Of a stretch of DNA of 64,000 bases, positions 3,007-61,133 are shown piece after piece (positions within the stretch are counted from its first letter, which is position 1; each line of letters opens with the position of its first letter). The notes under the pieces are model-generated. The model was not told the DNA's origin, searched no databases, and saw nothing but the letters and a program-made list of their open reading frames with translations. Location of the stretch: positions 1,529,983 to 1,593,982 of the forward strand of contig CP121331.1 in assembly GCA_043511425.1 (NCBI GenBank), read 5' to 3'. The stretch comes from Sphingobacteriales bacterium. Lineage in GTDB: Bacteria > Bacteroidota > Bacteroidia > NS11-12g > UBA9320. The translations under genes and the position numbers were made by a program.

Positions 3007-3303
3007 ATGAAGGAGCATCGTTATTTTATTTACATCTTACTTTGTGGAGATGGCACCTACTATACTGGCGTTACCAATAATCTTGAGCGAAGAGAAGCCG
3101 AACACTTAGACGGGTATAATGAAAGCTCGTATACACATAATCGTCAACCTACGAAACTCGTCTATCACGAAGAATTTAAATTCATAGACAAAGCAATTGC
3201 TAGAGAAAAACAGGTCAAAAAGTGGTCTCAAAAAAAGAAGAAGGCACTGATAGATGACTATGCTGATAGGCTACCAACTTTATCCAAAAAGAAGTTTGAT
3301 TGA
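3007..3303 (+). CDS. Small GIY-YIG nuclease superfamily protein (UPF0213/YhbQ-like), 98 aa, embedded between repeat clusters.
   Basis: N-terminal YFIYILLCGDGTYYTGVTNNLERREAEH matches the GIY-YIG catalytic core (GIY...YTG...N...R...EH), and the C-terminus is lysine-rich. The stop codon overlaps the conserved repeat leader. Confidence 0.8.
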   Translation: MKEHRYFIYILLCGDGTYYTGVTNNLERREAEHLDGYNESSYTHNRQPTKLVYHEEFKFIDKAIAREKQVKKWSQKKKKALIDDYADRLPTLSKKKFD

Positions 3304-4140
3304 TGGCTTGTCTGTTCTCGGTACAAAAGCATCTTCGATGCTTCCACTCGAACTGACAAGCGTCTTCGCGATTGCATTTCGGTTCTCGGAGCGTTGTCAC
3401 TTCGAGTGATGTTTGCCGAAGGCGAAATCGTACCGAGAAGTGAACAAGCGTCTTCGCGATTACCTTTCGGGTTGTTCATTTCTCGGTACAAAAGCATCTT
3501 TGATGCTTTCACTCGAAGAGACAAGCGTCTTCGCATCAGCAGTTCAGGTAATTGGGGCGTTGTCACTTCGAGTGATGTTTGCCAAAGGCAAAATCGTACC
3601 GAGAAGGGACAAGCGTCTTCGTTATTACTTTCGGTTGTCGGGGCGTTGTCACTTCGAGTGATATTTGCCGAAGGCGAAATCGTACCGAGAAGGGACAAGC
3701 GTCTTCGCGATTGCATTTCGGTTGTCGGGGCGTTGTCACTTCGAGTGATATTTGCCGAAGGCGAAATCGTACCGAGAAGGGACAAGCGTCTTCGTTATTA
3801 CTTTCGGTTGTCGAGGCGTTGTCACTTCGAGTGATATTCGCCAAAGGCGAAATCGTACCGAGAAGGGACAAGCGTCTTCGCGATTGCCTTTCGGTTGTCG
3901 GGGCGTTGTCACTTCGAGTGATATTCGCCAAAGGCGAAATCGTACCGAGAAGGGACAAGCGTCTTCGCGATTGCATTTCGGTTCTCGGAGCGTTGTCACT
4001 TCGAGTGATGTTTGCCGAAGGCGAAATCGTACCGAGAAGTGAACAAGCGTCTTCGTTATTACTTTCGGTTATCGGGAGGTTGTCACTTCGAGTGATATTC
4101 GCCAACGGCGAAATCGTACCGAGAAGGGACAACCATTCCC
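3297..4140. repeat. Repeat cluster 3. Leader (3300-3323), X (3316-3383), Y (3392-3478), X (3479-3555), then 8 tandem Y units of 86-87 bp with unit starts near 3558, 3644, 3731, 3817, 3904, 3991 and 4078. The last unit is truncated at GACAACCATTCC.
   Basis: Near-identical 87-bp periodicity read directly from the sequence. The units are open in multiple frames on both strands, which explains the spurious long ORFs in the six-frame track. Confidence 0.9.
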
Positions 4141-4208
4141 TTCCGGCTAGTCCGCTTGGCAAGAAGTTATTTTAACGCATATATTTTAAAATGAGCTTGC
4201 TCCTAGCA

Positions 4209-10156: not shown

Positions 10157-11558
10157 TTGAAAAATAATTATTCAGACCTAATCGATCAAACGTTTAATTT
10201 CCCTACAGAGGAGTTTCACACCAATATGGAAGGTGAACTACAGTACCGAAACATTCCATTGATGGACCTCGCTAAAAAGTACGGAACACCCTTTAGATTC
10301 AGCTATTTACCTAAAATATCTGAGAATATTCAGAAAGCTAAGTTCTGGTTTGCAGATGCATTTGCTGAGCACAACTACAATGGCACCTACAATTATTGTT
10401 ACTGTACCAAAAGCTCACATTATAAGTATGTTATTAAAGAGGGACTTAAAAATGATATTCACTTAGAGACTTCCTCTGCTTTTGACCTGGACCTCATACT
10501 CAATCTTCATAACGACGGTTTATTGGGTAAGGAGCGGTTTATCATCTGCAATGGTTTTAAGACCGATTTATACATTGATAAAATCATAGAACTCATCGAC
10601 ATGGGTTTTGAAAACTTGCACGTAGTCTTAGACAATACCCGTGAGTTTCACCTCCTAAAAGGCCGTACAGAGAAAAAAATAAAACTAGGTATACGCATAG
10701 CTGCAGAGGAAGAACCTAAATTTGAGTTTTACACCTCTAGATTAGGAATAGGGTATAAATACATCGTTCCTTTTTACCAAGACCTGATAGCAGAAGAGCC
10801 TAATATGGAGCTAAAAATGCTTCACTTCTTTATCAACACAGGCATCAGAGACACGGCTTACTACTGGAATGAATTGCGTAAATGTCTGAATGTATATGCC
10901 AAACTAAAAGCGGTGTGTGACAGTGTAGACTCCCTCAATATCGGCGGTGGATTTCCCATCAAACGGAGCCTTAACTTTAGTTACGACTACGCCTATATGA
11001 TCAAGGAAATCGTGGGTCAAATCAAACAAGAGTGTACCGAAAAGAATGTGAGAGAACCTCATATTTTCACTGAGTTTGGCAGCTATCACGGTAGGAGAAA
11101 GTGGCGGCACCGTATATAAAATACTTCACCAAAAAAGACAAAACGACCGTGAACGTTGGGATATGATAGATGGTTCATTTATGACCACACTCCCTGATGC
11201 ATGGGCCATAAACGAACGTTTCATTCTCCTCCCACTCAATAAGTGGAACAAGAGCTATGAGCGTGTGCTCTTGGGTGGACTCACCTGTGACAGTGATGAC
11301 TACTACAATAGCGAGCAACACGTAAACGCAATCTATCTGCCTACTGTAGAAGATACCGATGAAGAGCCACTCTACATCGCTTTTTTCAATACAGGTGCAT
11401 ACCAAGAAAGTCTCAGTGGACAAGGAGGCATCAAACACTGCCTGATCCCTAGTCCGAAGAAGATTCTACTGTACAAAGATGAGCATGGCAATATAAAAGA
11501 TGAGCTATTTGCAGAGGAGCAAAATGTAGAGAGTATGATGAAAATACTCGGATACTAA
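10157..11558 (+). CDS. PLP-dependent (fold-III, ODC/DapDC family) arginine decarboxylase-like enzyme. There is an apparent +1 frameshift near 11085-11090, not at a homopolymer.
   Basis: ORFs 10157..11119 and 11076..11558 overlap and together give one ~465-aa protein. Motifs: NIGGGFPI, and TEFGSY followed by TVGESGGTVYKIL across the shift (the counterpart of EPGRAL.TAHH). The C-terminus is FFNTGAYQESL. Confidence 0.7.
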
Positions 11559-27130: not shown

Positions 27131-29366
27131 ATGAAATCATTAAAAATTACCCCCCATTTTAAGAACGCTAGTAATCAGCATATTAGTTATTCCCCCTATG
27201 GTTAGCTTGGCACAAACTGCACCAACTATTGCAGCAGAAAATGGTACAAATGCTATTATTGGATGTACTGATATATATGTCACTAATAGCATTATCCCAA
27301 ATCCTACCATAATTGAATGGTATAAAGATGGAGTTCTTGACCATACCGGAGGAATATCCTACAGCCCTTCCGTGGCTGGAGATTATCACGTAGAATTCCC
27401 TTGGCACGCAGTTCCAAGCAACATTATTGAAGCTGAAGTTTTCATACCAGTATCAATTGTCAAAACAGGAAATTTACTAGGAAATGAGCCGCCTCCAGCA
27501 AGTTGTCACATACCAATTGACTTAGTTCCTACACAACCTAACAACTATAATTATGAAAACTATATGTGGACTAGAAACGGCGATATTCATGATAACAATC
27601 TATCTCTCCACACTTTAGATAGACCTGGCAACTATGTTTTTTCAGTAGACGGACCTTGCGGAATTGAGACAAGTAGTCAAAATATTCAATATACTTGCGG
27701 TTTAGGTAATATGTGCGTTGGGACTTCTTATATTAGTGGAGGTTCTATCACATCGAGTACTAATGTTGGTGATGAAGCTATCGGAGGAACGTTAACTATT
27801 TCTGGGCCAGGTGTTATAGTACTATTTACAGATGAATTAGATATGCAACCGAACTCAAAAATAGTTGTAACCAATGGTGCACAGCTTAATATTGATCGTG
27901 CAATATTTCGATCTTGCGGCACTTGGCAAGGAATTGTAAATGATGGCGGAAGCATAGTTTTTTTTGGAGCGTTAGGAGACAATAAAATTTTTGACGCAGA
28001 AGTAGCTATTACAAATTTAAATGCATCGACCTCTATGGTTATAAGAAGTTTAGTTTTTGAGGACAATGGAGCTCACATTGTTTCACAGAACTCAACATAC
28101 TCTATTGAATCCTGCCTTTTTAAATCCTTATCAAATATCCCAATTACGAACAATACTGCTGCCCTAAGCATACTTGCAAGTAGTAATACTACTCTTCCAA
28201 TGGTCTATGCTCATAATTCAACACTTTCTGATATTCTGTATTGTACGTTTGACCAACGCGACAACAACCAACCTGGAACCCCAGTAGAAGTTACCGCTTT
28301 AGAGTTTAATGATGTAAGTTTAGGTCAAACTATTGGCCTCGACATTTTAGATAACTTCAAATATGGAATCTATGGCGTGGACTGTGATCAATTAAACATT
28401 TCTTCTATCCATTTTGGTAGCGAATATATAAATCTTAACAACCCACCACTCTTTTATGACGTAGCACCTCCTAGATCTCTAAACGGCATCTACTTGAAAG
28501 ACTACAAAAACACAGTACTAAATGATGCTACCATACAAGCTGAGAATATTGGAATTCAGTTTTACCTTAATGAAGACAACACTCCACAGCTCTATGGATC
28601 CCACATTAGTTCTTGTGAAATTTCACTTCATGGAAATGCCGGCGCTCAAAAAACTGGTATCATCATAGCACCAGATGAAAACCCGATGACAAATACAAAC
28701 AGCATCATAAACTCTAGCACGACACCGATAAAACTAGACTTGGAATGTTTAAGGCTACAAGGCTGGGACTACGGCATCGTAGGTAGTGGTATCAAAACAG
28801 ACTGGGTAAGCATCATAGGTGGTCTTGACCCGGCCATAGAGTTTAACAATATCCAAGAATGGCCAATCCTATGGAGTGAAAATATAACTTGGGCTCCGAG
28901 CAATCAGATGAAGTATTATACTGCGAGTCCGTATGCTGACCCATTGATACAAGATATATTGGCCCCTTCATATCCTGCTTTAGATGGGACAGTTATTAAT
29001 GCCGGAAATTATTCAACAGCGGTTGGGGTATATGGCCCATTTTTTTCATCTGCAATTAGTACAACTGGTGTACAGTGTTTGCCTAGCTGGGTTAGGTACA
29101 AAAAAGACCCGCTGAGTGAAGAAGAAATTAACGTAGTAAATGCTGTAGCATATCCTAATCCATTTAATAACAGGCTAAATGTCTCGCTCAATGGTAAGCG
29201 TATAGACCGATTAGAGGTTTACAATAGTATTGGTGAAAGAGTTGCTTCTTTAACTAGCCCTTTAAATGAAGTAGAACTTAATACAGATACTTGGACTTCT
29301 GGTGTATACTACTTAATACTGACAAGCACGATTGAAAAAGTTTCAATAAAAACTGTTAAATACTAG
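27131..29366 (+). CDS. Large secreted protein (beta-helix-like, Asn/Thr-rich) with a T9SS type-A C-terminal sorting domain. The signal peptide is split by a 1-nt indel in a C6 run (27150-27155).
   Basis: The C-terminus YPNPFNNRLNVSL...GVYYLILTSTIEKVSIKTVKY matches Por_Secre_tail. Upstream, MKSLKITP in one frame joins ILRTLVISILVIPPMVSLAQ-TAP in the gene frame if one C is removed. Confidence 0.7.
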
Positions 29367-29378
29367 CTCCTGCTGTTT

Positions 29379-32300
29379 ATGAAAAGGTTTTTCACTATAC
29401 TTTACTTGCTATTAGCATGCGTGGCTTGTTTTGCACAGCAAGGCGGTATTTTGCTTGGATCTAAATTTATTCTCCAATCAGACAATGACAGTTCATGGCT
29501 AGAATCGCTTTTGGTTGGTAACTTAGGTGGACAAAGTGATGGAATTCCACTTACCAATTGTTTTGGAGAAACGTTATTTACTGCTGGCTATATTCTAAAT
29601 AATCGAAATCTTCAGAAGCCAGTAAATCAATATGAGTTCTATGACACTGTTTACAGAAAAAGCTGTCCAAATTATAACAGATCAAGACTCTTATCATCTT
29701 ACTCCTCACCTTTTAAGTCAAATCATGCAAACTCTATACTCCTACATCAGAAAAATGGAGATTCAATCGAGTTTTCGTTTGGCACTTGGATGGTAAGTAA
29801 TGACAGTACGATATGGACCAGACTGGACTGCACTTCCCAGTTTATTGACACTATATACAATCCATATAGTTATAAGGGAATTGAGCTTATCACTCATCAG
29901 CAATTCGTCTGGAATATCATTATGCATAATGGTCACTTTCTCGCACTCAAGAGTAGTGACACAGGAATAGTAGATTACAATCGGACATTTAAAAACGGCA
30001 CAAATCAGAATAGATTCTCGAATGGTATATTTAGTCAATTAAAAGCTAATAATACAGGAGATCAATTGGTGGCTATAGAGGATGATGGCAACTCTGTCGT
30101 AAACCTCTACCAGTTTGATAAAGTTACCGGTGCCGTTTCATTCGATAAATCACTGCTTCAAAAATCACAGTTGCCGAGTTATAATTTTTGCACTGGCTAC
30201 TATGAATCTGTGCTGGACGGAATAGCCTTCTCACAAAACGACTCTATCATTTACATCGGCTACACCTACTACCCTATATGTAATGATTATACGAGACGAA
30301 TCCGAACGATTTACCAAATAGACCGATTTCATCCGAACCCTTCTAGCACCCTAAAAAACGTGTTTACAAAATACTATACCAACCTTGATGGTTCAGGTTT
30401 AAGAACTAGTTTAAGTTTATTTACGGCTCGTGACGGCATAATATATTGGGGAGAGGGTCGAGACTCAGCATTTCATACCATAGAGAATGCAAATGTTTAT
30501 GGCAGTACAATCAATTACTTCAATAGATATACAGACAAAGATCAGATAAACAACCTCGGTATATCCACTTACCCCAGCACCTACAAGTGGACTGCTTTTG
30601 ATGCCTTCAATGGCTGTAGTGATAGTATGGTGGCAGTATTTTACGGCTCAGAAAATCTGCTCCAAGTCACCTACTTATGGGGCGATGGAGACAGCACGGT
30701 GTATGATAGCGGCACCATAGTCAATGGAGATCAAAGTCTGCATGTCTATGATAGCAGTGGCACCTACACCATCACCCAGCGTGCCTTATACAATGACTGC
30801 GGCTATACCAAAACATCACGAAAAGTAGTGAATGTGACCGTGCCACCCAGTAGCTCAGATTACACACTTGAAGCAGATACTAGCTGCACACAGCACACCA
30901 TATCACTACTAGACACTGTAGAACATACAGAGATGGTATGCGTAGACTGGGGAGATAGTGTAAAAGATACCATACTTTTAATTACCAAAGGATTAAACCC
31001 CATCAGCATATCGCACACCTACACTACACCAGATACTTTTATGCTGAGTTACAAACTGGTAGGATATGGCATCCCCAGTGAAGGAGTAGTAGGCTGTACA
31101 CGAGTATTAGATACTAACTATGTAGCTGCTTTTCACCCTACACCACAGCCAGCCTACACGTGGAGTACTAACTATATAAAAGATACCCCACTCAGTGACA
31201 CCGCTATACTCTGCGTATATGAAGGACTTACACTCAGCCAGACGAGTGATAGCTTTAGCTACTTTACCAGTACCCCCTCAGTATCTATGGATACTTCACT
31301 AGCAGATAAAATAGCACTCCAGCTGCCTAGCGGCTGGCACCAGACTATCTTAACATCCTACACTAAACACGGGTGCCAAGTATTTGACACATTCACAGTA
31401 GGCATAGCGCCTCGCACTTCTGCCTTATGGAAGGGAGATACCAATGTATGTGAAAATACCCCCACCACGCATGGTGTCAATGTATTTACCTTTTTAGGCG
31501 CCATAGATAGCGTGATATCATCTACTCCTATCATCTATAAGTCTACTGACAGTCTGCTATTAGCCTTAAACGGCAGTACAGTGTCTGCATACACCATTAC
31601 CACGACAGCTTTTACAAATACAGGATGTATAGACACTTTTAAACGAACGATACACGTACGTCCACTACCGAGCATCTCACTAACAGGGGATAGTGCTGCT
31701 TGTATAAATGCTTCGGTACCTTATACTCCTATAGTGACATCTGTGGACAGTAGTATAATAAACTGGTATGTGGATGGCACAAGTAAGCAGACCTCACCAC
31801 TACTGCCACAAAATGAGCATATAGACTATTTTACCAGTAGCAGCTTCCCAGTTCGTATGGAGGTAGTAGGATTGGTATCCACTATGTACGGGTGTGTAGG
31901 TTCCGATACCGCATATACGGACGTATTTTCGCCTCCTGACATAGTACTAAGTGTTACAGATATCGCTGCTTGCTTAAACGAGCAGCCCATTTCACTTACG
32001 TCTAATACATTACTATACGAATCCACTGATATCCTACATGCGTGGGGTGACGGAAGATACTCTAGTACCGTAAGCACTACGGATACCGTGGAGCAACACC
32101 AGCACAGATACGACGTAGACGGAAGTTATACGTTTACGAGCATAGCTCAAGGACAAGTCTCCAACTGCACAGACACTAGTTATGCTACCATCACTATACA
32201 TGCACTACCCGAGGTAAGCATAAGTGGAGATGATGCCTGTGAAGGGGATCAAGGAAGCGTAGTAACTACCTGGAGGTCAGACACTACACTGTCCGTTATT

Positions 32301-32984
32301 CAAACCTTTGCAGATAATCTTTTACTGAATACCATTACACAGCCGAGTGAGCAAGGTACATCTGGGGTCTACTACCTCCCATCAGCCACTAACACCACTC
32401 TACTCAGCATAGTCAGAGATACTCTGGGATGCTCGGACAGTAGTGAAATAACCACACGAACTCTGACTAAGCCGCTGGCCAATTATACCGTATCATATGT
32501 TGGTGCTGATGAGTTTAAGGTGTCTTATCTATTTGAAGACAAATCTGTGAATCACACCTCTGCAGAATTATATTACGGGGACGGATTCAGCGATGGCCTT
32601 TCTCCTAGCTTCACTCAGGAGCATACCTATGCAGATACGGGTACTTTTTCATCCTACCTTATCGTCAGCAATGAAGGATTGTGTCTTGATACCGCATATC
32701 AGAATGTACTTGCCCAGCCTTTTGTAGATTTTTATATCCCTACGTCCATCACGCCCAATGCTGATGGACTAAACGATTATCTTAGTTTTAGTACTACCTT
32801 TATACAGTCTTTTCAGATAAATTTATATAACAGATGGGGCGAAAATGTAATGCGGATAGGTGACGTATCAGAGCTTGTAAAAACCAGTGATCTGCCCATA
32901 GGTGTATACGCAGTATCTTATGGTATCATAGATATTTTCAACAATAAACACTACGTTCATCAGACACTTACGGTCCTAAAATAG
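29379..32984 (+). CDS. Giant (1201 aa) secreted adhesin-like protein with a T9SS type-B / gliding-motility-associated C-terminal domain (CHU_C).
   Basis: Signal peptide, then many Thr/Ser-rich Ig/PKD-like repeats, then the C-terminal motif ITPNADGLNDYL...NRWGENV, characteristic of TIGR04131. Confidence 0.7.
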   Translation: MKRFFTILYLLLACVACFAQQGGILLGSKFILQSDNDSSWLESLLVGNLGGQSDGIPLTNCFGETLFTAGYILNNRNLQKPVNQYEFYDTVYRKSCPNYNRSRLLSSYSSPFKSNHANSILLHQKNGDSIEFSFGTWMVSNDSTIWTRLDCTSQFIDTIYNPYSYKGIELITHQQFVWNIIMHNGHFLALKSSDTGIVDYNRTFKNGTNQNRFSNGIFSQLKANNTGDQLVAIEDDGNSVVNLYQFDKVTGAVSFDKSLLQKSQLPSYNFCTGYYESVLDGIAFSQNDSIIYIGYTYYPICNDYTRRIRTIYQIDRFHPNPSSTLKNVFTKYYTNLDGSGLRTSLSLFTARDGIIYWGEGRDSAFHTIENANVYGSTINYFNRYTDKDQINNLGISTYPSTYKWTAFDAFNGCSDSMVAVFYGSENLLQVTYLWGDGDSTVYDSGTIVNGDQSLHVYDSSGTYTITQRALYNDCGYTKTSRKVVNVTVPPSSSDYTLEADTSCTQHTISLLDTVEHTEMVCVDWGDSVKDTILLITKGLNPISISHTYTTPDTFMLSYKLVGYGIPSEGVVGCTRVLDTNYVAAFHPTPQPAYTWSTNYIKDTPLSDTAILCVYEGLTLSQTSDSFSYFTSTPSVSMDTSLADKIALQLPSGWHQTILTSYTKHGCQVFDTFTVGIAPRTSALWKGDTNVCENTPTTHGVNVFTFLGAIDSVISSTPIIYKSTDSLLLALNGSTVSAYTITTTAFTNTGCIDTFKRTIHVRPLPSISLTGDSAACINASVPYTPIVTSVDSSIINWYVDGTSKQTSPLLPQNEHIDYFTSSSFPVRMEVVGLVSTMYGCVGSDTAYTDVFSPPDIVLSVTDIAACLNEQPISLTSNTLLYESTDILHAWGDGRYSSTVSTTDTVEQHQHRYDVDGSYTFTSIAQGQVSNCTDTSYATITIHALPEVSISGDDACEGDQGSVVTTWRSDTTLSVIQTFADNLLLNTITQPSEQGTSGVYYLPSATNTTLLSIVRDTLGCSDSSEITTRTLTKPLANYTVSYVGADEFKVSYLFEDKSVNHTSAELYYGDGFSDGLSPSFTQEHTYADTGTFSSYLIVSNEGLCLDTAYQNVLAQPFVDFYIPTSITPNADGLNDYLSFSTTFIQSFQINLYNRWGENVMRIGDVSELVKTSDLPIGVYAVSYGIIDIFNNKHYVHQTLTVLK

Positions 32985-56141: not shown

Positions 56142-56528
56142 CTATAAAGAAACTTTAATGGCGTTACCAAAATAAGGTGGGTCAGCAACTTCACTGTGCT
56201 TTATTCGTCGATAGTCAAGCTTTCGTTTCACCTCCTTCCGCAAGACACCTTCACCTTTACCCACAATTAGATATGCGTGTCGTACACTTTTCTTTTTAGC
56301 ATCTATCAGAAAATCTTCAAGTGCTTCCAACTGAAGCCTAAGTTTTTCTGAAGTGGGAATTGACGCTTTTGTAGGATACAAACTTTCAAAGTGAAGATCA
56401 AACTCCACTTTACGTTCCTTTACTTGCTTCACTTTAGACGACTGCGTCTTAGCACTAAATGCCGATGAAAAATCTCCCATCATCATTCTCCTAAGCATCT
56501 CAGGGTTTATTTCGCCGTCCTCTTTCAC
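56142..56528 (-). CDS. Smr-domain protein.
   Basis: EFDLHFESL...AYLIVGKGEGVLRKEV matches the LDLHG...G.G Smr core. Confidence 0.65.
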   Translation of the reverse strand: MKEDGEINPEMLRRMMMGDFSSAFSAKTQSSKVKQVKERKVEFDLHFESLYPTKASIPTSEKLRLQLEALEDFLIDAKKKSVRHAYLIVGKGEGVLRKEVKRKLDYRRIKHSEVADPPYFGNAIKVSL

Positions 56529-56563: not shown

Positions 56564-58045
56564 TTAAAATTTTGTTGTAAGTGTGAGCATAATTCTGGTG
56601 TTCCTAAGCTTAGAGTTCACTGCACCAGACGGCTCGCTATTGAGCGCATAAGGCACATATACGTCAGAGGTAATCTCCCTCGCTAAACCAAAGTCAAATG
56701 CCCATGCTTTCTCTTGAAAACCAACACCTCCACTGATAATATTTCTGCGGTAATCGCCCCCATTCTGTAAAGGAGATCCTATACTCGCAAAACCGCCTCG
56801 TAATCTAAAATCACTCACTGCATACTCCCCTCCTATTTTAAATGTGGTGGCTGTACCATACTTTTCCGTGATGAGCTCATTTACTCCGTCAAAGAATGCA
56901 TCCTCACTGCTCAAGTTCATTGTACTGTAGTCTGAGGTCTCTATCTCAGCACTTAACAGACCCTGCTTGCCAAAGATGTACGTTCCTTGTAGTCCGTATT
57001 TTGCAGGAGTCACTACCGTGTAGCTAAATTCTTTATCAATAGTAGTAAGATCTTCTAAACTTCCATCATCATACAGCACAAACAGCTCGTCACTGTACTT
57101 GTCCGTCAAATTAAGTAACGTCGGCGTGTGCATAGTCCCTCCAATTCGGATGTTATTATTAGGCCTAAAAATAACTCCGAGTCTACCACTAAATCCCTGG
57201 CCGTTTGTTTCCAGGTTTCGTGTAAGATCAAATGAACTCCAATTCCCAGAGGTATTGGGATTGTCTATCTCAGAGAACACATTGGTCTCTGTATAATTCA
57301 CATTATGTACGTTAATCGCGGCACCGAAATATATTTTATGCTCATAGTTCCCAGCGAAGGCCAGATTAAATTCACCTGATGAACCTCGTGTCACCACATT
57401 ACCTGACTGACCAATATTCCCAGCTACATTATCCATGTTTGCATAGTAATTCCCATTGCTTGCTGAGTCTATAAGATACCCGTACCAAAACATGTTTTCC
57501 ATATAGTAAAAACCCTGTGCCAATTGCTCATCATTGGCATCCAGCTGAGAGACACCTAACCCTTGTACATACTGAGCTACGTAGTTGGTATAGGAGTTAT
57601 TACTCGTTCCTTTATAGCTAATATTTCTGTTGAAATCATTTGTTCTGTTATATCCTATTGCCCAGTTCGTGTTTACCCAGCCCCTTTTCAAGGGGTTCCC
57701 GTTTTGTGTTTTTACCTGTGTATTTACTAAATTGATACTATTAAACTGCCCATTAAATAGATTAGATCTTCTAGAATTACCTAGATAATCAGCATCATTT
57801 TGCTTTGTGGCAGTAGACAGTGTAACATTGAAAGTACCTGTTCTGTACTGTGCTAATCCGGCGGGATTTACCAATATAGAAGTTTGGTCAGCACCCATAG
57901 CTCCTATAGCTCCTCCTAGACCTAGTGCTCTTGCGGTGGACGCTGAAACATCCCCCTGACTATATCTGAGTACATCTAAGTCGCTCTGTGCAGATGCATT
58001 GGTAATCAGTAGCCCAATGAGGGCGGTAAATAATATCTTTTTCAT
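56564..58045 (-). CDS. FadL/PorV-family outer-membrane beta-barrel transport protein.
   Basis: Signal peptide, then ARALGLGGAIGAMGADQTSILVNPAGLA (N-terminal hatch with NPA motif). Aromatic C-terminal strand ...TLTTKF. Confidence 0.55.
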   Translation of the reverse strand: MKKILFTALIGLLITNASAQSDLDVLRYSQGDVSASTARALGLGGAIGAMGADQTSILVNPAGLAQYRTGTFNVTLSTATKQNDADYLGNSRRSNLFNGQFNSINLVNTQVKTQNGNPLKRGWVNTNWAIGYNRTNDFNRNISYKGTSNNSYTNYVAQYVQGLGVSQLDANDEQLAQGFYYMENMFWYGYLIDSASNGNYYANMDNVAGNIGQSGNVVTRGSSGEFNLAFAGNYEHKIYFGAAINVHNVNYTETNVFSEIDNPNTSGNWSSFDLTRNLETNGQGFSGRLGVIFRPNNNIRIGGTMHTPTLLNLTDKYSDELFVLYDDGSLEDLTTIDKEFSYTVVTPAKYGLQGTYIFGKQGLLSAEIETSDYSTMNLSSEDAFFDGVNELITEKYGTATTFKIGGEYAVSDFRLRGGFASIGSPLQNGGDYRRNIISGGVGFQEKAWAFDFGLAREITSDVYVPYALNSEPSGAVNSKLRNTRIMLTLTTKF

Positions 58046-58110: not shown

Positions 58111-59631
58111 CTACCTTCTTCTTCCTCCAGAACTGCTTCTGCTTGGAGTTGCCGAGCGAGATGGACTGCTACTGCGGCTTGGGCTAGCACTTCTGCTCGG
58201 AGAGCTACTTCTACTGGGGGTTGTAGCTCTTGGCGTGCTACTTCTGCTTGGTGTCGTTGCTCGTGGAGTACTACTTCTGCTTGGAGGAGTATACGACCTG
58301 CTCGGCGTGCTGCTTCTACTTGGCGTTGTTGCTCTTGGCGTAGTGCTTCTGCTAGGGGTCGTTGCCCGTGGAGTACTACTTCTGGTAGGAGGAGTATACG
58401 ACCTGCTCGGAGTGCTGCTTCTACTTGGCGTTGTTGCTCTTGGCGTGTTGCTTCTGCTCGGTGTCGTTGCTCGTGGAGTACTACTTCTGGTAGGAGGAGT
58501 ATACGACCTGCTCGGTGTGCTGCTTCTACTAGGTGTTGTAGCTCTTGGCGTGCTACTTCTGCTCGGTGTCGTTGCTCGTGGAGTTGTAGTTTCATTAGAG
58601 CGAGTAGTCCCCCCAGTTGAATTGGTACCAACGTTACCTCGAGTACCTTCGCCTCTCACCGTCCCGCTATTACCTCTAGTATTGCCTATTGGCTCTGATA
58701 CGTTTGAAGGTCTTCGCGAAGGAGTAACAACTCTTGCATCTCCAACTCCTCCAGAACCTACTTCCTCAGTAGTACCTCCTCGAGTAGTTACCTCCGTTCG
58801 TTGACCTCCTAGTCTACGTGTATTCACACTTCCACTTTGAGAGGTGGAAGTATTACCCCCTACTCGCTGCCTTGGGCTATTTGCTGCTCTATTATATCTA
58901 TCCGATCCTGAGTAGCCTAAACCTCTATTCCCGTTTCCTCCATTATTGGACGAGAATACCCCTCTATTTCCGTTCCAGCCATTGTTCCAGCCGTGATTAT
59001 TGTATCCATTCCCCCATCTGTTCCCGGAGTAGTACCCGCCGTTATTCCAACCTCCATAGTATGGATTACCACAGTAGCCTCTACCATACCAGCCATTATT
59101 CCATGGATTTCCATACCAGCCACCTGCGTATGGATTCCCCCAAGAATATCCACCGTACCAACCATTCCAGCTGTTGTACCCAAAGCTCCATCCTCCGCGT
59201 GGTCTGGTCCAATAGTTATTGCCATACCAGCCACCAGTATATGGATTTCCCCAAGATTACCCGCCGTACCAACCATTGTTCCAGCTATTGTTCCATCGAT
59301 TATCTTGATTGGCATCTTGATATCCCGCGGCATAGCCATTTTCATAGGAATACTCAAATTCTTCCCCTCTAAATCTACGGATTCTTCTTTCGTAATCCGT
59401 TTCATCTACATCAGCGTAGTCTTCTGTCGGGATAGCCTCTTGATTTTCTGATAAGCGCACAGGCTCTTGCGGTGTATATTTTTCAGGAGCTGGTTGTGGT
59501 ACTTTTTGTACAACGATAATGTCATCTTCTGGAGTATAATAGACATCATCCATAGCGGTGTTGGTCATCCTAGTGCTGGTGCAGCTTGCTAGGAAAATAG
59601 TGGCGAGAGTGAGATACGTGTATAATTTCAT
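58111..59631 (-). CDS. Low-complexity lipoprotein: signal/lipobox, then an acidic region, then a W/G/Y/N-rich repeat region, then an S/T/P/R-rich region with 3 tandem 35-aa repeats, ending GGRRR. The single frame is interrupted by one TAA at 59257-59259.
   Basis: ORFs 59257..59631 and 58111..58827 are in the same frame with no other stop between them. The stop is a TAT-to-TAA difference relative to the neighbouring repeat copy ([14 protein letters not shown] versus [13 protein letters not shown]). Confidence 0.55.
58215..58600. repeat. In-frame tandem repeat, 105 bp x about 3.5 copies (anchors at 58253, 58358, 58463 and 58568), encoding [35 protein letters not shown].
   Basis: Exact 105-bp periodicity of GTCGTTGC and GAGTATACGACCTGCTCGG in the sequence. 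Confidence 0.85.
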
Positions 59632-59661: not shown

Positions 59662-59669
59662 TTAATTTT
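59662..59669 (+). promoter_or_regulatory. -7 box TAATTTTG (TAnnTTTG) upstream of proS.
   Basis: Consensus match, 44 nt upstream of the ATG at 59713. Confidence 0.3.
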
Positions 59670-59712
59670 GCCGTCATACTATAATATTCAATTAGCATAC
59701 CAAAGACAACTT

Positions 59713-61133
59713 ATGGCATTCGAAAAAGTAACTCGCGAACAAGATTACTCCAAGTGGTACAACAACCTAGTAGAAAATGCAGACTTAGCTCAGCACAGTA
59801 GCGTGCGAGGCTGTATGGTGATAAAACCCTACGGATATGCTATTTGGGAGAAAATGCAGGCTGAACTAGACCGTAGATTTAAAGAAACGGGACACGAAAA
59901 CGCGTACTTCCCTCTTTTTGTCCCTAAAAGTCTCTTTGAAGCCGAAGAAAAAAATGCAGAAGGTTTTGCCAAAGAATGTGCTGTTGTCACACACTATAGA
60001 TTAGAGACCGACCCAGACAAACCGGGTAAACTGAGAGTAGACCCTAATGCAAAGCTAGAAGAAGAACTTATCGTACGACCTACGAGTGAGGCTATCATAT
60101 GGAATACCTACAAAGGATGGATACAGAGCTACAGAGACCTTCCTCTTTTGATCAATCAATGGGCTAACGTAGTTCGATGGGAGATGCGTACGCGATTATT
60201 TTTGCGAACAGCTGAGTTTTTGTGGCAAGAAGGACATACCGCTCACGCTACCAAAACGGAAGCAGAAGCAGAAACCGATCAGATGGTACGTGTATATGAA
60301 GAATTTTCTAGGAATATACTTGCCATACCAACGATTATGGGACACAAAACGGAGAGTGAACGTTTTGCAGGAGCAGAAGACACATTGTGTATTGAGGGTC
60401 TCATGCAAGATGGGAAAGCACTCCAAATGGGAACTTCTCACTTCTTAGGTCAAAACTTCGCTAAAGCTTTTGATGTGAAATTTGCGACTAAAGAGGGAAA
60501 ACTAGAACACGTATGGGCAACTAGCTGGGGCGTGAGTACGCGCCTCATGGGAGCACTCATTATGGCTCACTCAGATGATGAGGGACTGGTACTTCCTCCA
60601 AATCTGGCACCAATACAAGTAGTAATAGTGCCTATTTACAAAGGATTAGACCAGCTAGAGGCTATTAGTGAGAAGATAGATCCTATCATTAAAAATCTAA
60701 GAGCAAAAGGGATCAGCGTAAAGTTTGACACGCGAGATACGCACAAGCCAGGGTTTAAATTTGCTGAGTGGGAACTCAAAGGAGTCCCTGTACGAATAGC
60801 TATTGGGAATAGAGATCTAGAAGCTGGCACAAAAAAAAAATAGAAAATCTACTCGCAGTGATGCAAGACCACATTTACATGAAAGCCTTAAACTTTAGAG
60901 ACAACCATACTACATTAGTCAATACGTGGGAGGAGTTTCAAGAAGTGCTAGAAGGTAAAGGAGGCTTTATCTCTGCACACTGGGACGGTACCGCAGAGAC
61001 TGAAGAAAAAATACAACAAGCGACGAAGGCAACTATCCGGTGTATTCCTTTTGACAACCCACAGGAAGCCGGTAAATGTATCTTCTCTGGCAAGCCAAGT
61101 AAAGAAAGAGTGCTGTTTGCGAAGGCGTACTAG
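59713..61133 (+). CDS. proS: Proline--tRNA ligase (archaeal/eukaryote-like type, common in Bacteroidetes). The reading frame is broken at an A10 run (60831-60840).
   Basis: N-terminus [19 protein letters not shown], class II motifs, and C-terminus ...KATIRCIPF...[13 protein letters not shown]. ORFs 59668..60843 and 60858..61133 join as ...[16 protein letters not shown]... if the run is A11. Confidence 0.85.

Follow-up and report, generated by a model that had tools for sequence, protein, structure and literature searches.

The window analysed here is a 64,000-nucleotide stretch of a Sphingobacteriales bacterium (contig CP121331.1, positions 1,529,983 to 1,593,982 of the forward strand), and the element in question is a gene for a low-complexity lipoprotein on its minus strand, at window positions 58111–59631. 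The frame that starts with the ATG at 59631 is open down to a TAG at 58113–58111 and has a single interruption, a TAA at 59259–59257, as an earlier note on this DNA had read it and as translation confirms. Mechanical listing of open reading frames (ORFs) at the locus yields a 124-aa ORF (59631–59257) and, further down, a 238-aa ORF started by GTG. The four-part composition described in the earlier note is likewise borne out: a lipobox, an acidic segment, W/G/Y/N repeats and a tail rich in Arg/Ser (RS) and Thr/Pro (TP) that ends in GGRRR. The gene is laid out as follows.

58111–59631, minus strand: the whole lipoprotein gene, 506 codons with the TAA taken as Tyr and a terminal TAG at 58113–58111, as given by translation and by uninterrupted full-length homologues of 447–650 aa
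59581–59631, minus strand: predicted signal peptide with lipobox LASC (residues 14–17), Cys 17 being the predicted lipidated residue; read from the sequence, with a lipobox in 78 family members
59536–59550, minus strand: DDVYY motif, 11 residues past the lipid-anchor Cys; D-D-x-Y columns are invariant in alignment A4
59302–59580, minus strand: acidic, Pro-containing N-terminal part of the mature protein (residues 18–110), net charge −13 from its composition
59332–59397, minus strand: conserved 22-aa block holding the RIRRF motif of the family, from alignments A1 and A4 and a motif scan
59257–59259, minus strand: the in-frame TAA, codon 125; TAC (Tyr) in the conspecific contigs L021, L022 and L026, the variant base being 59257
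58912–59301, minus strand: W/G/Y/N-rich low-complexity segment of degenerate GNPYxGGWYG repeats (residues 111–240; G 28%, N 22%, Y 14%, W 13%), with the 60-nt repeat family D4
58924–58962, minus strand: 39-nt (13-aa) in-frame segment missing from the conspecific contigs, its exact placement ambiguous because of flanking GNRG direct repeats
58864–58899, minus strand: conserved 12-aa block that opens the polar linker, from invariant columns in alignment A1
58588–58911, minus strand: polar, basic linker rich in G/T/R/S by composition, net charge +7
58114–58587, minus strand: RS/TP-rich tail (residues 349–506) of 11-aa units grouped into 35-aa super-repeats, ending in GGRRR; net charge +29, isoelectric point 12
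58193–58584, minus strand: 105-bp tandem array (Tandem Repeats Finder: period 105, 3.7 copies, 90% matches, score 637)

The tail is composed of S 31%, T 22%, P 18% and R 18%, and the lipoprotein shows charge polarity, with an acidic part next to the anchor and a strongly basic distal end. The tandem array reported earlier as three near-identical 105-bp repeats is present, but its copies, which a repeat search finds in register at 100, 90 and 85% identity, are 85–90% alike rather than identical. The TAA lies inside a 60-nt internal duplicate (59218–59277 against 59107–59166, 87% identical) whose partner copy has TAT at the corresponding codon. The TAA is thus one base away from the codon of the neighbouring copy, as had been noticed, but the ancestral codon in the conspecific contigs is TAC, and the variant base is the third codon position, 59257, not 59258 as first proposed. 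Upstream of the gene, a search for the Bacteroidetes-type −7 promoter motif TAnnTTTG gave no exact match.

Comparison with homologues reveals that the two listed ORFs belong to one gene. Five proteins (P0001–P0005; 371–501 aa, 38–57% identity) span 61–95% of the read-through protein as single ORFs, and twelve loci from species-representative genomes likewise carry one ORF across the position of the stop. Altogether, 14 genomic loci do so. In a 79%-related metagenome contig (L020), frame 3 is open throughout the homologous region. Downstream of the stop, 28 substitutions relative to the conspecific contig L021 are synonymous and 12 change the residue, indicating that this region has evolved as coding. 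The open frame by itself is weak evidence, because other frames of the repeat are also open, even though the chance of a 381-codon open stretch after the stop is ~5e-11 at the local base composition (our own arithmetic). The proof of coding is the full-length homologues together with the excess of synonymous differences.

A reading in which a short 124-aa lipoprotein gene is followed by a separate unit, either a distinct gene or non-coding repeat DNA, would account for the 124-aa and GTG-started 238-aa ORFs returned by ORF calling, and the homologous region of L020 is also fragmented by gene callers. However, the homologues are all continuous over the junction, L020 included in frame 3, the downstream part lacks a separate signal peptide, and synonymous changes dominate in a single long frame. 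The aligned, continuous homologues already refute this reading, and its chance is close to nil. Every homologue runs across the stop position and none ends at the TAA, and the single lipoprotein gene proposed in the earlier note is retained here. In L020 (1636–3200), the gene caller split an intact homologue into pieces of 44, 106 and 25 aa. The family is probably under-annotated, as callers fragment or miss its genes.

Conspecific contigs were reached via the neighbouring barrel gene, whose 98%-identical cluster (P0056) led to contigs with 97.3–98.9% nucleotide identity to the window. The stop site is spanned by three of these (L021, L022 and L026), from three ENA samples; all read TAC (Tyr) there, each with an intact 447-aa gene. 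A scan of metagenomes with the read-through protein returned no conspecific sequence (the best match was 61% identical, and three matches were spurious low-complexity hits), and a scan of genomes returned only metagenome-assembled genomes (MAGs), at no more than 60% identity. Judged against these contigs, the in-frame TAA is a TAC-to-TAA change at 59257 that is private to this assembly, and it is neither an ancient nor a regulated feature. Two of the origins that had been suggested for it, a recent nonsense mutation and an error, fit the TAC in three of three conspecific contigs. The remaining one, an on/off variant, is not supported: the substitution that made the stop lies in no simple-sequence tract, and the repeat units are all multiples of 3 bp. 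Slippage would therefore alter the length of the protein and not its frame, and the array is no phase-variation device.

Close relatives differ in the repeat region by the gain or loss of entire in-frame units, in agreement with the length variability that had been predicted for it. The window and L019 differ by one clean extra 33-bp unit in the array. Compared with L021, L022 and L026, the window is 138 bp (105+33) longer in the array and has the extra 39-bp segment, although the 138-bp difference may be partly an artefact, because the comparison contigs are short-read (k141) assemblies that can collapse 105-bp repeats. Elsewhere in the family, P0003 and L008 are identical at 466 of 467 residues and differ by one 10-aa unit, and P0005 is shorter by two units. 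Lineages differ in both the repeat unit and its copy number, and all observed length differences are in frame.

By its sequence, the window gene is an outer-membrane lipoprotein of a large, unnamed family that extends across the Bacteroidota. The lipobox LASC matches the pattern [LVI][ASTVI][GAS]C used to predict signal peptidase II (SPII) substrates. A profile search of 1.84 billion cluster representatives returned 3918 matches at E ≤ 1e-3, 1906 at E ≤ 1e-10 and 511 at E ≤ 1e-30, most of them full-length proteins of 450–620 aa. The family signature consists, in order, of a signal peptide or lipobox, a D-D-x-Y motif ~11 residues past the anchor, an acidic segment, RIRRF, an aromatic/Gly/Asn-rich segment, a polar basic linker, PSRS-type repeats and a GGRR C terminus, and every one of these elements is present in the window protein as well as in alignments A1 and A4. 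Conserved features of alignment A4 (33 members) are the invariant D-D-x-Y, an (S)RIRRF block, a YYGPR-like block, PSRS-type repeats and a GGRR-type C terminus. Among 111 members with D-D-x-Y, 78 bear a lipobox, with the motif 8–15 residues after the Cys. The other 33, mostly Saprospiraceae-like sequences, have an ordinary signal peptide and carry Q[FY]DDVYYD at the predicted mature N terminus (AQA-Q[FY]DDVYYD). Members with an ordinary signal peptide, about a third of those found, include P0006, P0025, P0047 and P0048.

The low-complexity composition noted earlier is confirmed, and disorder is predicted for the entire lipoprotein, the AlphaFold2 model built with 33 aligned sequences having a mean confidence (predicted local distance difference test, pLDDT) of 46.8 and no secondary structure past the signal helix. 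Pfam (E ≤ 0.1, with both parts of the protein) and NCBIfam gave no family for the lipoprotein, and a PDB sequence search gave nothing meaningful. Source databases name homologues hypothetical protein or give them spurious labels such as Vitellogenin II (Chitinophaga horti) or pilus assembly protein (Tellurirhabdus). Proteins with YXWGXW repeats or DUF6600 (PF20245), such as P0022, P0035 and P0252, cross-match in searches with the window protein and resemble it in having aromatic-Gly repeats followed by an S/T/P/R-rich tail with a GRR-type end. They differ in lacking D-D-x-Y and RIRRF and in having folded N-terminal domains (FecR or DUF6600). Membership in DUF6600 itself was rejected, the window protein having no match to the Pfam model. 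A closely similar tail, S/T/P/R-rich and ending in a GRR-type terminus, is found in unrelated DUF6600, FecR and YXWGXW-repeat proteins (P0022, P0035, P0052, P0053 and P0252). The basic PSRS...GGRR tail may be a module common to several families.

The lipoprotein gene is flanked by three conserved neighbours.

56564–58045, minus strand: the partner barrel, a 493-aa protein assigned to the FadL family of 14-strand outer-membrane barrels, with an NPA hatch; starts 65 nt past the lipoprotein stop
56142–56528, minus strand: small protein with an Smr domain, third in the conserved gene cluster, from Pfam Smr and synteny
59668–61133, plus strand: proS, the divergent conserved upstream neighbour, damaged by ten A at 60831–60840 in place of 68 nt

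A terminator scan of the 65-nt spacer between the lipoprotein and barrel genes found no terminator-like site. The AlphaFold2 model of the barrel has a pLDDT of 85.7, and its top 27 Foldseek matches are all FadL, TodX, TbuX, CymD or BamG. E. coli FadL is the best of them (E 3.7e-18), P. aeruginosa FadL (PaFadL) is also found, and B. thetaiotaomicron BamG (9hiv_F) matches with E 5e-16. A PDB search with the barrel as a single sequence gave nothing meaningful; a profile of 24 barrel homologues matches TbuX (1.2e-7) and PaFadL (1e-6) by sequence, and the N60-P61-A62 hatch motif is invariant in these 24. In the model, the barrel has the 14 strands and N-terminal hatch by which the FadL/TodX/OMPP1 fold is recognized. 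The FadL/PorV-like barrel that the earlier note had placed directly downstream is thus FadL-like, with FadL, TodX and TbuX as its best matches, but not PorV-like: it scores 31.6 bits against the PorV/PorQ model NF033709, whose cutoff is 90, and PorV structures are not among the leading Foldseek matches. Compared with E. coli FadL, TodX and TbuX, it shares the 14-strand fold, the N-terminal hatch and the NPA motif, but it is only 12–14% identical, ~50–70 residues longer and has a longer conserved mature N terminus. Classical FadL systems are not obligatorily paired with a disordered lipoprotein. The NCBI record P0187 calls the barrel as 444 aa, an exact substring (residues 50–493) of the 493-aa ORF; its annotated start is too late. 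Exact look-ups with the products of the barrel gene, the 124-aa ORF and the TraB-like gene of the window had no entry.

Synteny was read from the window and from loci L001–L015, L020–L022 and L029–L031. The order of a divergent proS, the family gene and a barrel of ~490 aa is kept in every locus long enough to show it, and it holds in a Flavobacteriales MAG, a Bacteroidales MAG and Neolewinella (Saprospiraceae), where the barrel is only 26–36% identical. The Smr-domain gene follows the barrel in most loci, and in closer relatives a 1200-aa TraB/GumN-like gene comes next.

The same gene order is found in Flavobacterium johnsoniae, where Fjoh_4939 is prolyl-tRNA synthetase (ProRS), Fjoh_4940 an SPII lipoprotein and Fjoh_4941 a FadL homologue (PMC12045153). 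Fjoh_4940 and Fjoh_4941 were both detected in membranes and both go up on depletion of TamL, and a functional link was suggested (PMC12045153). A profile search aimed at the F. johnsoniae sequence returned no Flavobacterium entry. A second system for comparison is the Bacteroidota β-barrel assembly machinery (BAM) complex, in which the FadL-like barrel BamG clamps the conserved N terminus of the lipoprotein BamH (PMC12578637, PMC12611786). BamG-BamH, like the BamG2-BamH2 operon, resembles the window pair in combining a FadL-fold 14-strand barrel with a lipoprotein. However, BamH is folded, crescent-shaped and surface-exposed and has an acidic export signal, whereas the window protein is predicted to be disordered and lacks the signal. 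In the PDB, the window barrel had no sequence-level match to BamG. Identity of the two pairs was rejected, since BamG of F. johnsoniae is Fjoh_1412 and not the proS-linked Fjoh_4941, and BamH is a folded, surface-exposed protein. The window pair is a system distinct from BamG-BamH, which serves as a mechanistic precedent only.

The side of the membrane on which the lipoprotein resides can be judged from its N terminus. Surface lipoproteins of Bacteroidota bear a minimum of two acidic residues at about +2 to +6 past the Cys (C-X-K-(D/E)2-X, SDDDD, SDDFE), and their position is critical (PMC5080379). None of the 78 lipidated family members has such a signal (at least two D/E at +2 to +6), and the window protein reads C-TSTRMT. 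Moreover, Fjoh_4940, which matches in genomic position, is listed as periplasm-facing (PMC12045153). Together, the missing signal and the classification of Fjoh_4940 argue against a surface antigen or adhesin, and the hypervariable surface protein envisaged in the earlier note finds no support.

Overall, we favour, at roughly 75%, the reading that the locus holds one disordered lipoprotein gene of a Bacteroidota family linked to proS and a FadL-type barrel, carrying a private stop. Our best guess for its role is that of a periplasm-facing disordered partner of the FadL paralogue. In such a mechanism, the lipid anchor would keep the lipoprotein on the periplasmic face of the outer membrane, and the N-terminal DDVYY and RIRRF motifs would dock it to the FadL paralogue expressed along with it. 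The long chain, rich in Tyr, Trp and Arg, could then project into the periplasm and, being polycationic and self-associating, form a tether or mesh, which may contact peptidoglycan or the inner membrane and aid lipid or hydrophobic-solute homeostasis or traffic, or envelope cohesion. As a whole, this docked tether or mesh is possible but doubtful. It is unlikely, and more so, that the family represents a phylum-wide disordered protein of aromatic/Arg sticker-and-spacer type, an obligate partner of the FadL paralogue that docks by DDVYY/RIRRF and forms a tether or condensate-like mesh coupling the channel to the cell wall or inner membrane.

Several points weigh against these interpretations. 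Docking and tethering are hypothetical, and gene adjacency is no proof of physical interaction. Fjoh_4940 is likened to the window protein by genomic position alone, and the export-signal rule, worked out in a few genera, may fail in this lineage. The 33 members with an ordinary signal peptide imply that the lipid anchor is not essential to the function of the family. With regard to the stop, one study supplied all three conspecific contigs, which may represent a single population. The TAA is a substitution, which is untypical of long-read error, and it is the only in-frame nonsense of its kind in the 64-kb window; the two other sites, at which one long ORF follows directly on another in frame, are normal borders between genes. 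Error and real mutation can be told apart only with the reads.

Other genes of the assembly are also damaged. In proS, at 60826–60841 and 1.2 kb from the TAA, 68 nt of the conspecific contigs (GGTAGAAGTAGCACG...AACAAAT) are swapped for ten A, so that the anticodon-binding domain loses ~19 codons and the frame is shifted. ProRS is intact in every relative (489–492 aa, and 492 aa in the conspecifics). A lesion in an essential aminoacyl-tRNA synthetase is hard to accept as biology and thus casts suspicion on the assembly; it looks like an assembly or gap artefact (e.g., a 10-base placeholder). A second anomaly is seen at 10157–11558 on the plus strand, where a pyridoxal phosphate (PLP)-dependent ornithine/arginine/diaminopimelate decarboxylase is broken into two overlapping ORFs in different frames. 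These hold the N-terminal PLP domain and then the C-terminal sheet domain, with the junction near 11085–11095 and an apparent 1-nt indel outside any homopolymer.

Because of these gene-breaking anomalies in proS and the decarboxylase, we lean, by a little over even odds, toward an error of this assembly as the origin of the TAA, although both differ from it in error type. A genuine and very recent nonsense mutation is a serious candidate at somewhat less than an even chance; the gene would then be a fresh pseudogene, or only a lipidated N-terminal stub of 108 residues would be made, without the aromatic and RS domains. The clean single-base change from TAC to TAA is in its favour, being a less typical assembly error than an indel, as is the window barrel, which is 7–10 residues away from all 14 population variants and so points to a separate lineage able to hold private mutations; long disordered repeat proteins are, moreover, often dispensable in culture. 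However, with no second lesion in the 1146 nt downstream and with synonymous changes dominant, a real mutation would have to be extremely young, and the implausible lesion in the essential proS within the same 9-kb stretch speaks for assembly problems. Decoding of the TAA by programmed read-through or stop-codon reassignment would suit a frame that stays open for 381 codons past the stop, but relatives have a sense codon at that site and the TAA is, as said above, the sole internal stop of such kind in the window. TAA is also the commonest terminator of long ORFs there (22 TAA, 16 TAG and 4 TGA), on which ground reassignment was rejected, and we regard this route as extremely unlikely. In either of the two favoured origins, the private stop marks quality problems in this assembly and is itself ordinary.

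The remaining alternatives place the protein outside the cell. As a contingency locus, the gene would encode a hypervariable surface adhesin or antigen; the stop would turn its expression on and off, and variation of its repeats would serve to escape recognition. Copy number does differ between near-identical alleles, and the W/G/Y/N/R composition resembles that of the mussel adhesive Mfp-3, with the hexapeptide GWNNGW in common (PMC9287526). This explanation is nevertheless very unlikely, as the stop lies outside any simple-sequence tract, no invertible element is present, repeat periods of 33 and 105 bp are multiples of 3 and unable to toggle the frame, and the codon is TAC in all three conspecific contigs; the same absence of an export signal from all 78 lipidated members and the periplasm-facing positional equivalent in F. 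johnsoniae count against it. A variant that dispenses with the switch is export to the surface through the partner barrel, where the protein would act as an Mfp-3-like aromatic and cationic adhesive for marine particles. The grip of a FadL-like barrel on a lipoprotein N terminus in BamG/BamH provides a precedent (PMC12578637, PMC12611786), the pairing with the FadL barrel is strictly conserved, a chain as wholly unfolded as predicted could thread through a pore, and the composition is adhesive-like. Yet the export signal is again not present, the barrel retains the NPA hatch typical of plugged transport channels, and F. johnsoniae BamG (Fjoh_1412) and the proS-linked Fjoh_4941 are separate paralogues. 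The same architecture occurs in non-marine members (Chitinophaga, Bacteroidales MAGs), and we consider surface adhesion quite improbable. The resemblance of Mfp-3 (Q9GUX8; PMC9287526) to the 130-residue middle segment extends to Gly/Tyr/Asn/Trp/Arg richness and the identical GWNNGW, but Mfp-3 is a 46-residue, animal-secreted protein that depends on 3,4-dihydroxyphenylalanine (DOPA), and the likeness is compositional convergence without homology.

Two further regions of the window were recorded in passing. An element with interspersed and tandem copies lies at ~650–1000, 2650–2960 and 3258–4175 and opens long reading frames on either strand (...SLLGTISPSANITRSDNAPTTE...). It is probably an array of repeats that does not code for protein, and a small GIY-YIG-like ORF (3007–3303) sits among its copies. 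At 27198–29366 and 29379–32984, on the plus strand, two adjacent genes encode large proteins with C-terminal sorting domains for type IX secretion (Por_Secre_tail and CHU_C). By coincidence the two share a frame, with one stop and 12 nt between them.

For the favoured reading of a disordered, proS- and FadL-linked lipoprotein, the significance lies with the family rather than with the stop. It comprises hundreds to thousands of sequence clusters across the Bacteroidota, has no domain model and is unstudied, and its constant linkage to proS and a FadL paralogue, in lineages that range from Bacteroidales to Saprospiraceae, makes it moderately interesting for envelope biology. Outer-membrane biogenesis in this phylum is under active revision, with new BAM subunits, TamL and LolA/B, and the F. 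johnsoniae counterparts respond to TamL depletion. If sequence homology holds, Fjoh_4940/4941 would be a genetically tractable model. Should the sticker-and-spacer interpretation prove true, FadL channels would have an accessory of a new type, and the family would be a rare example of a periplasmic protein that functions while disordered throughout.

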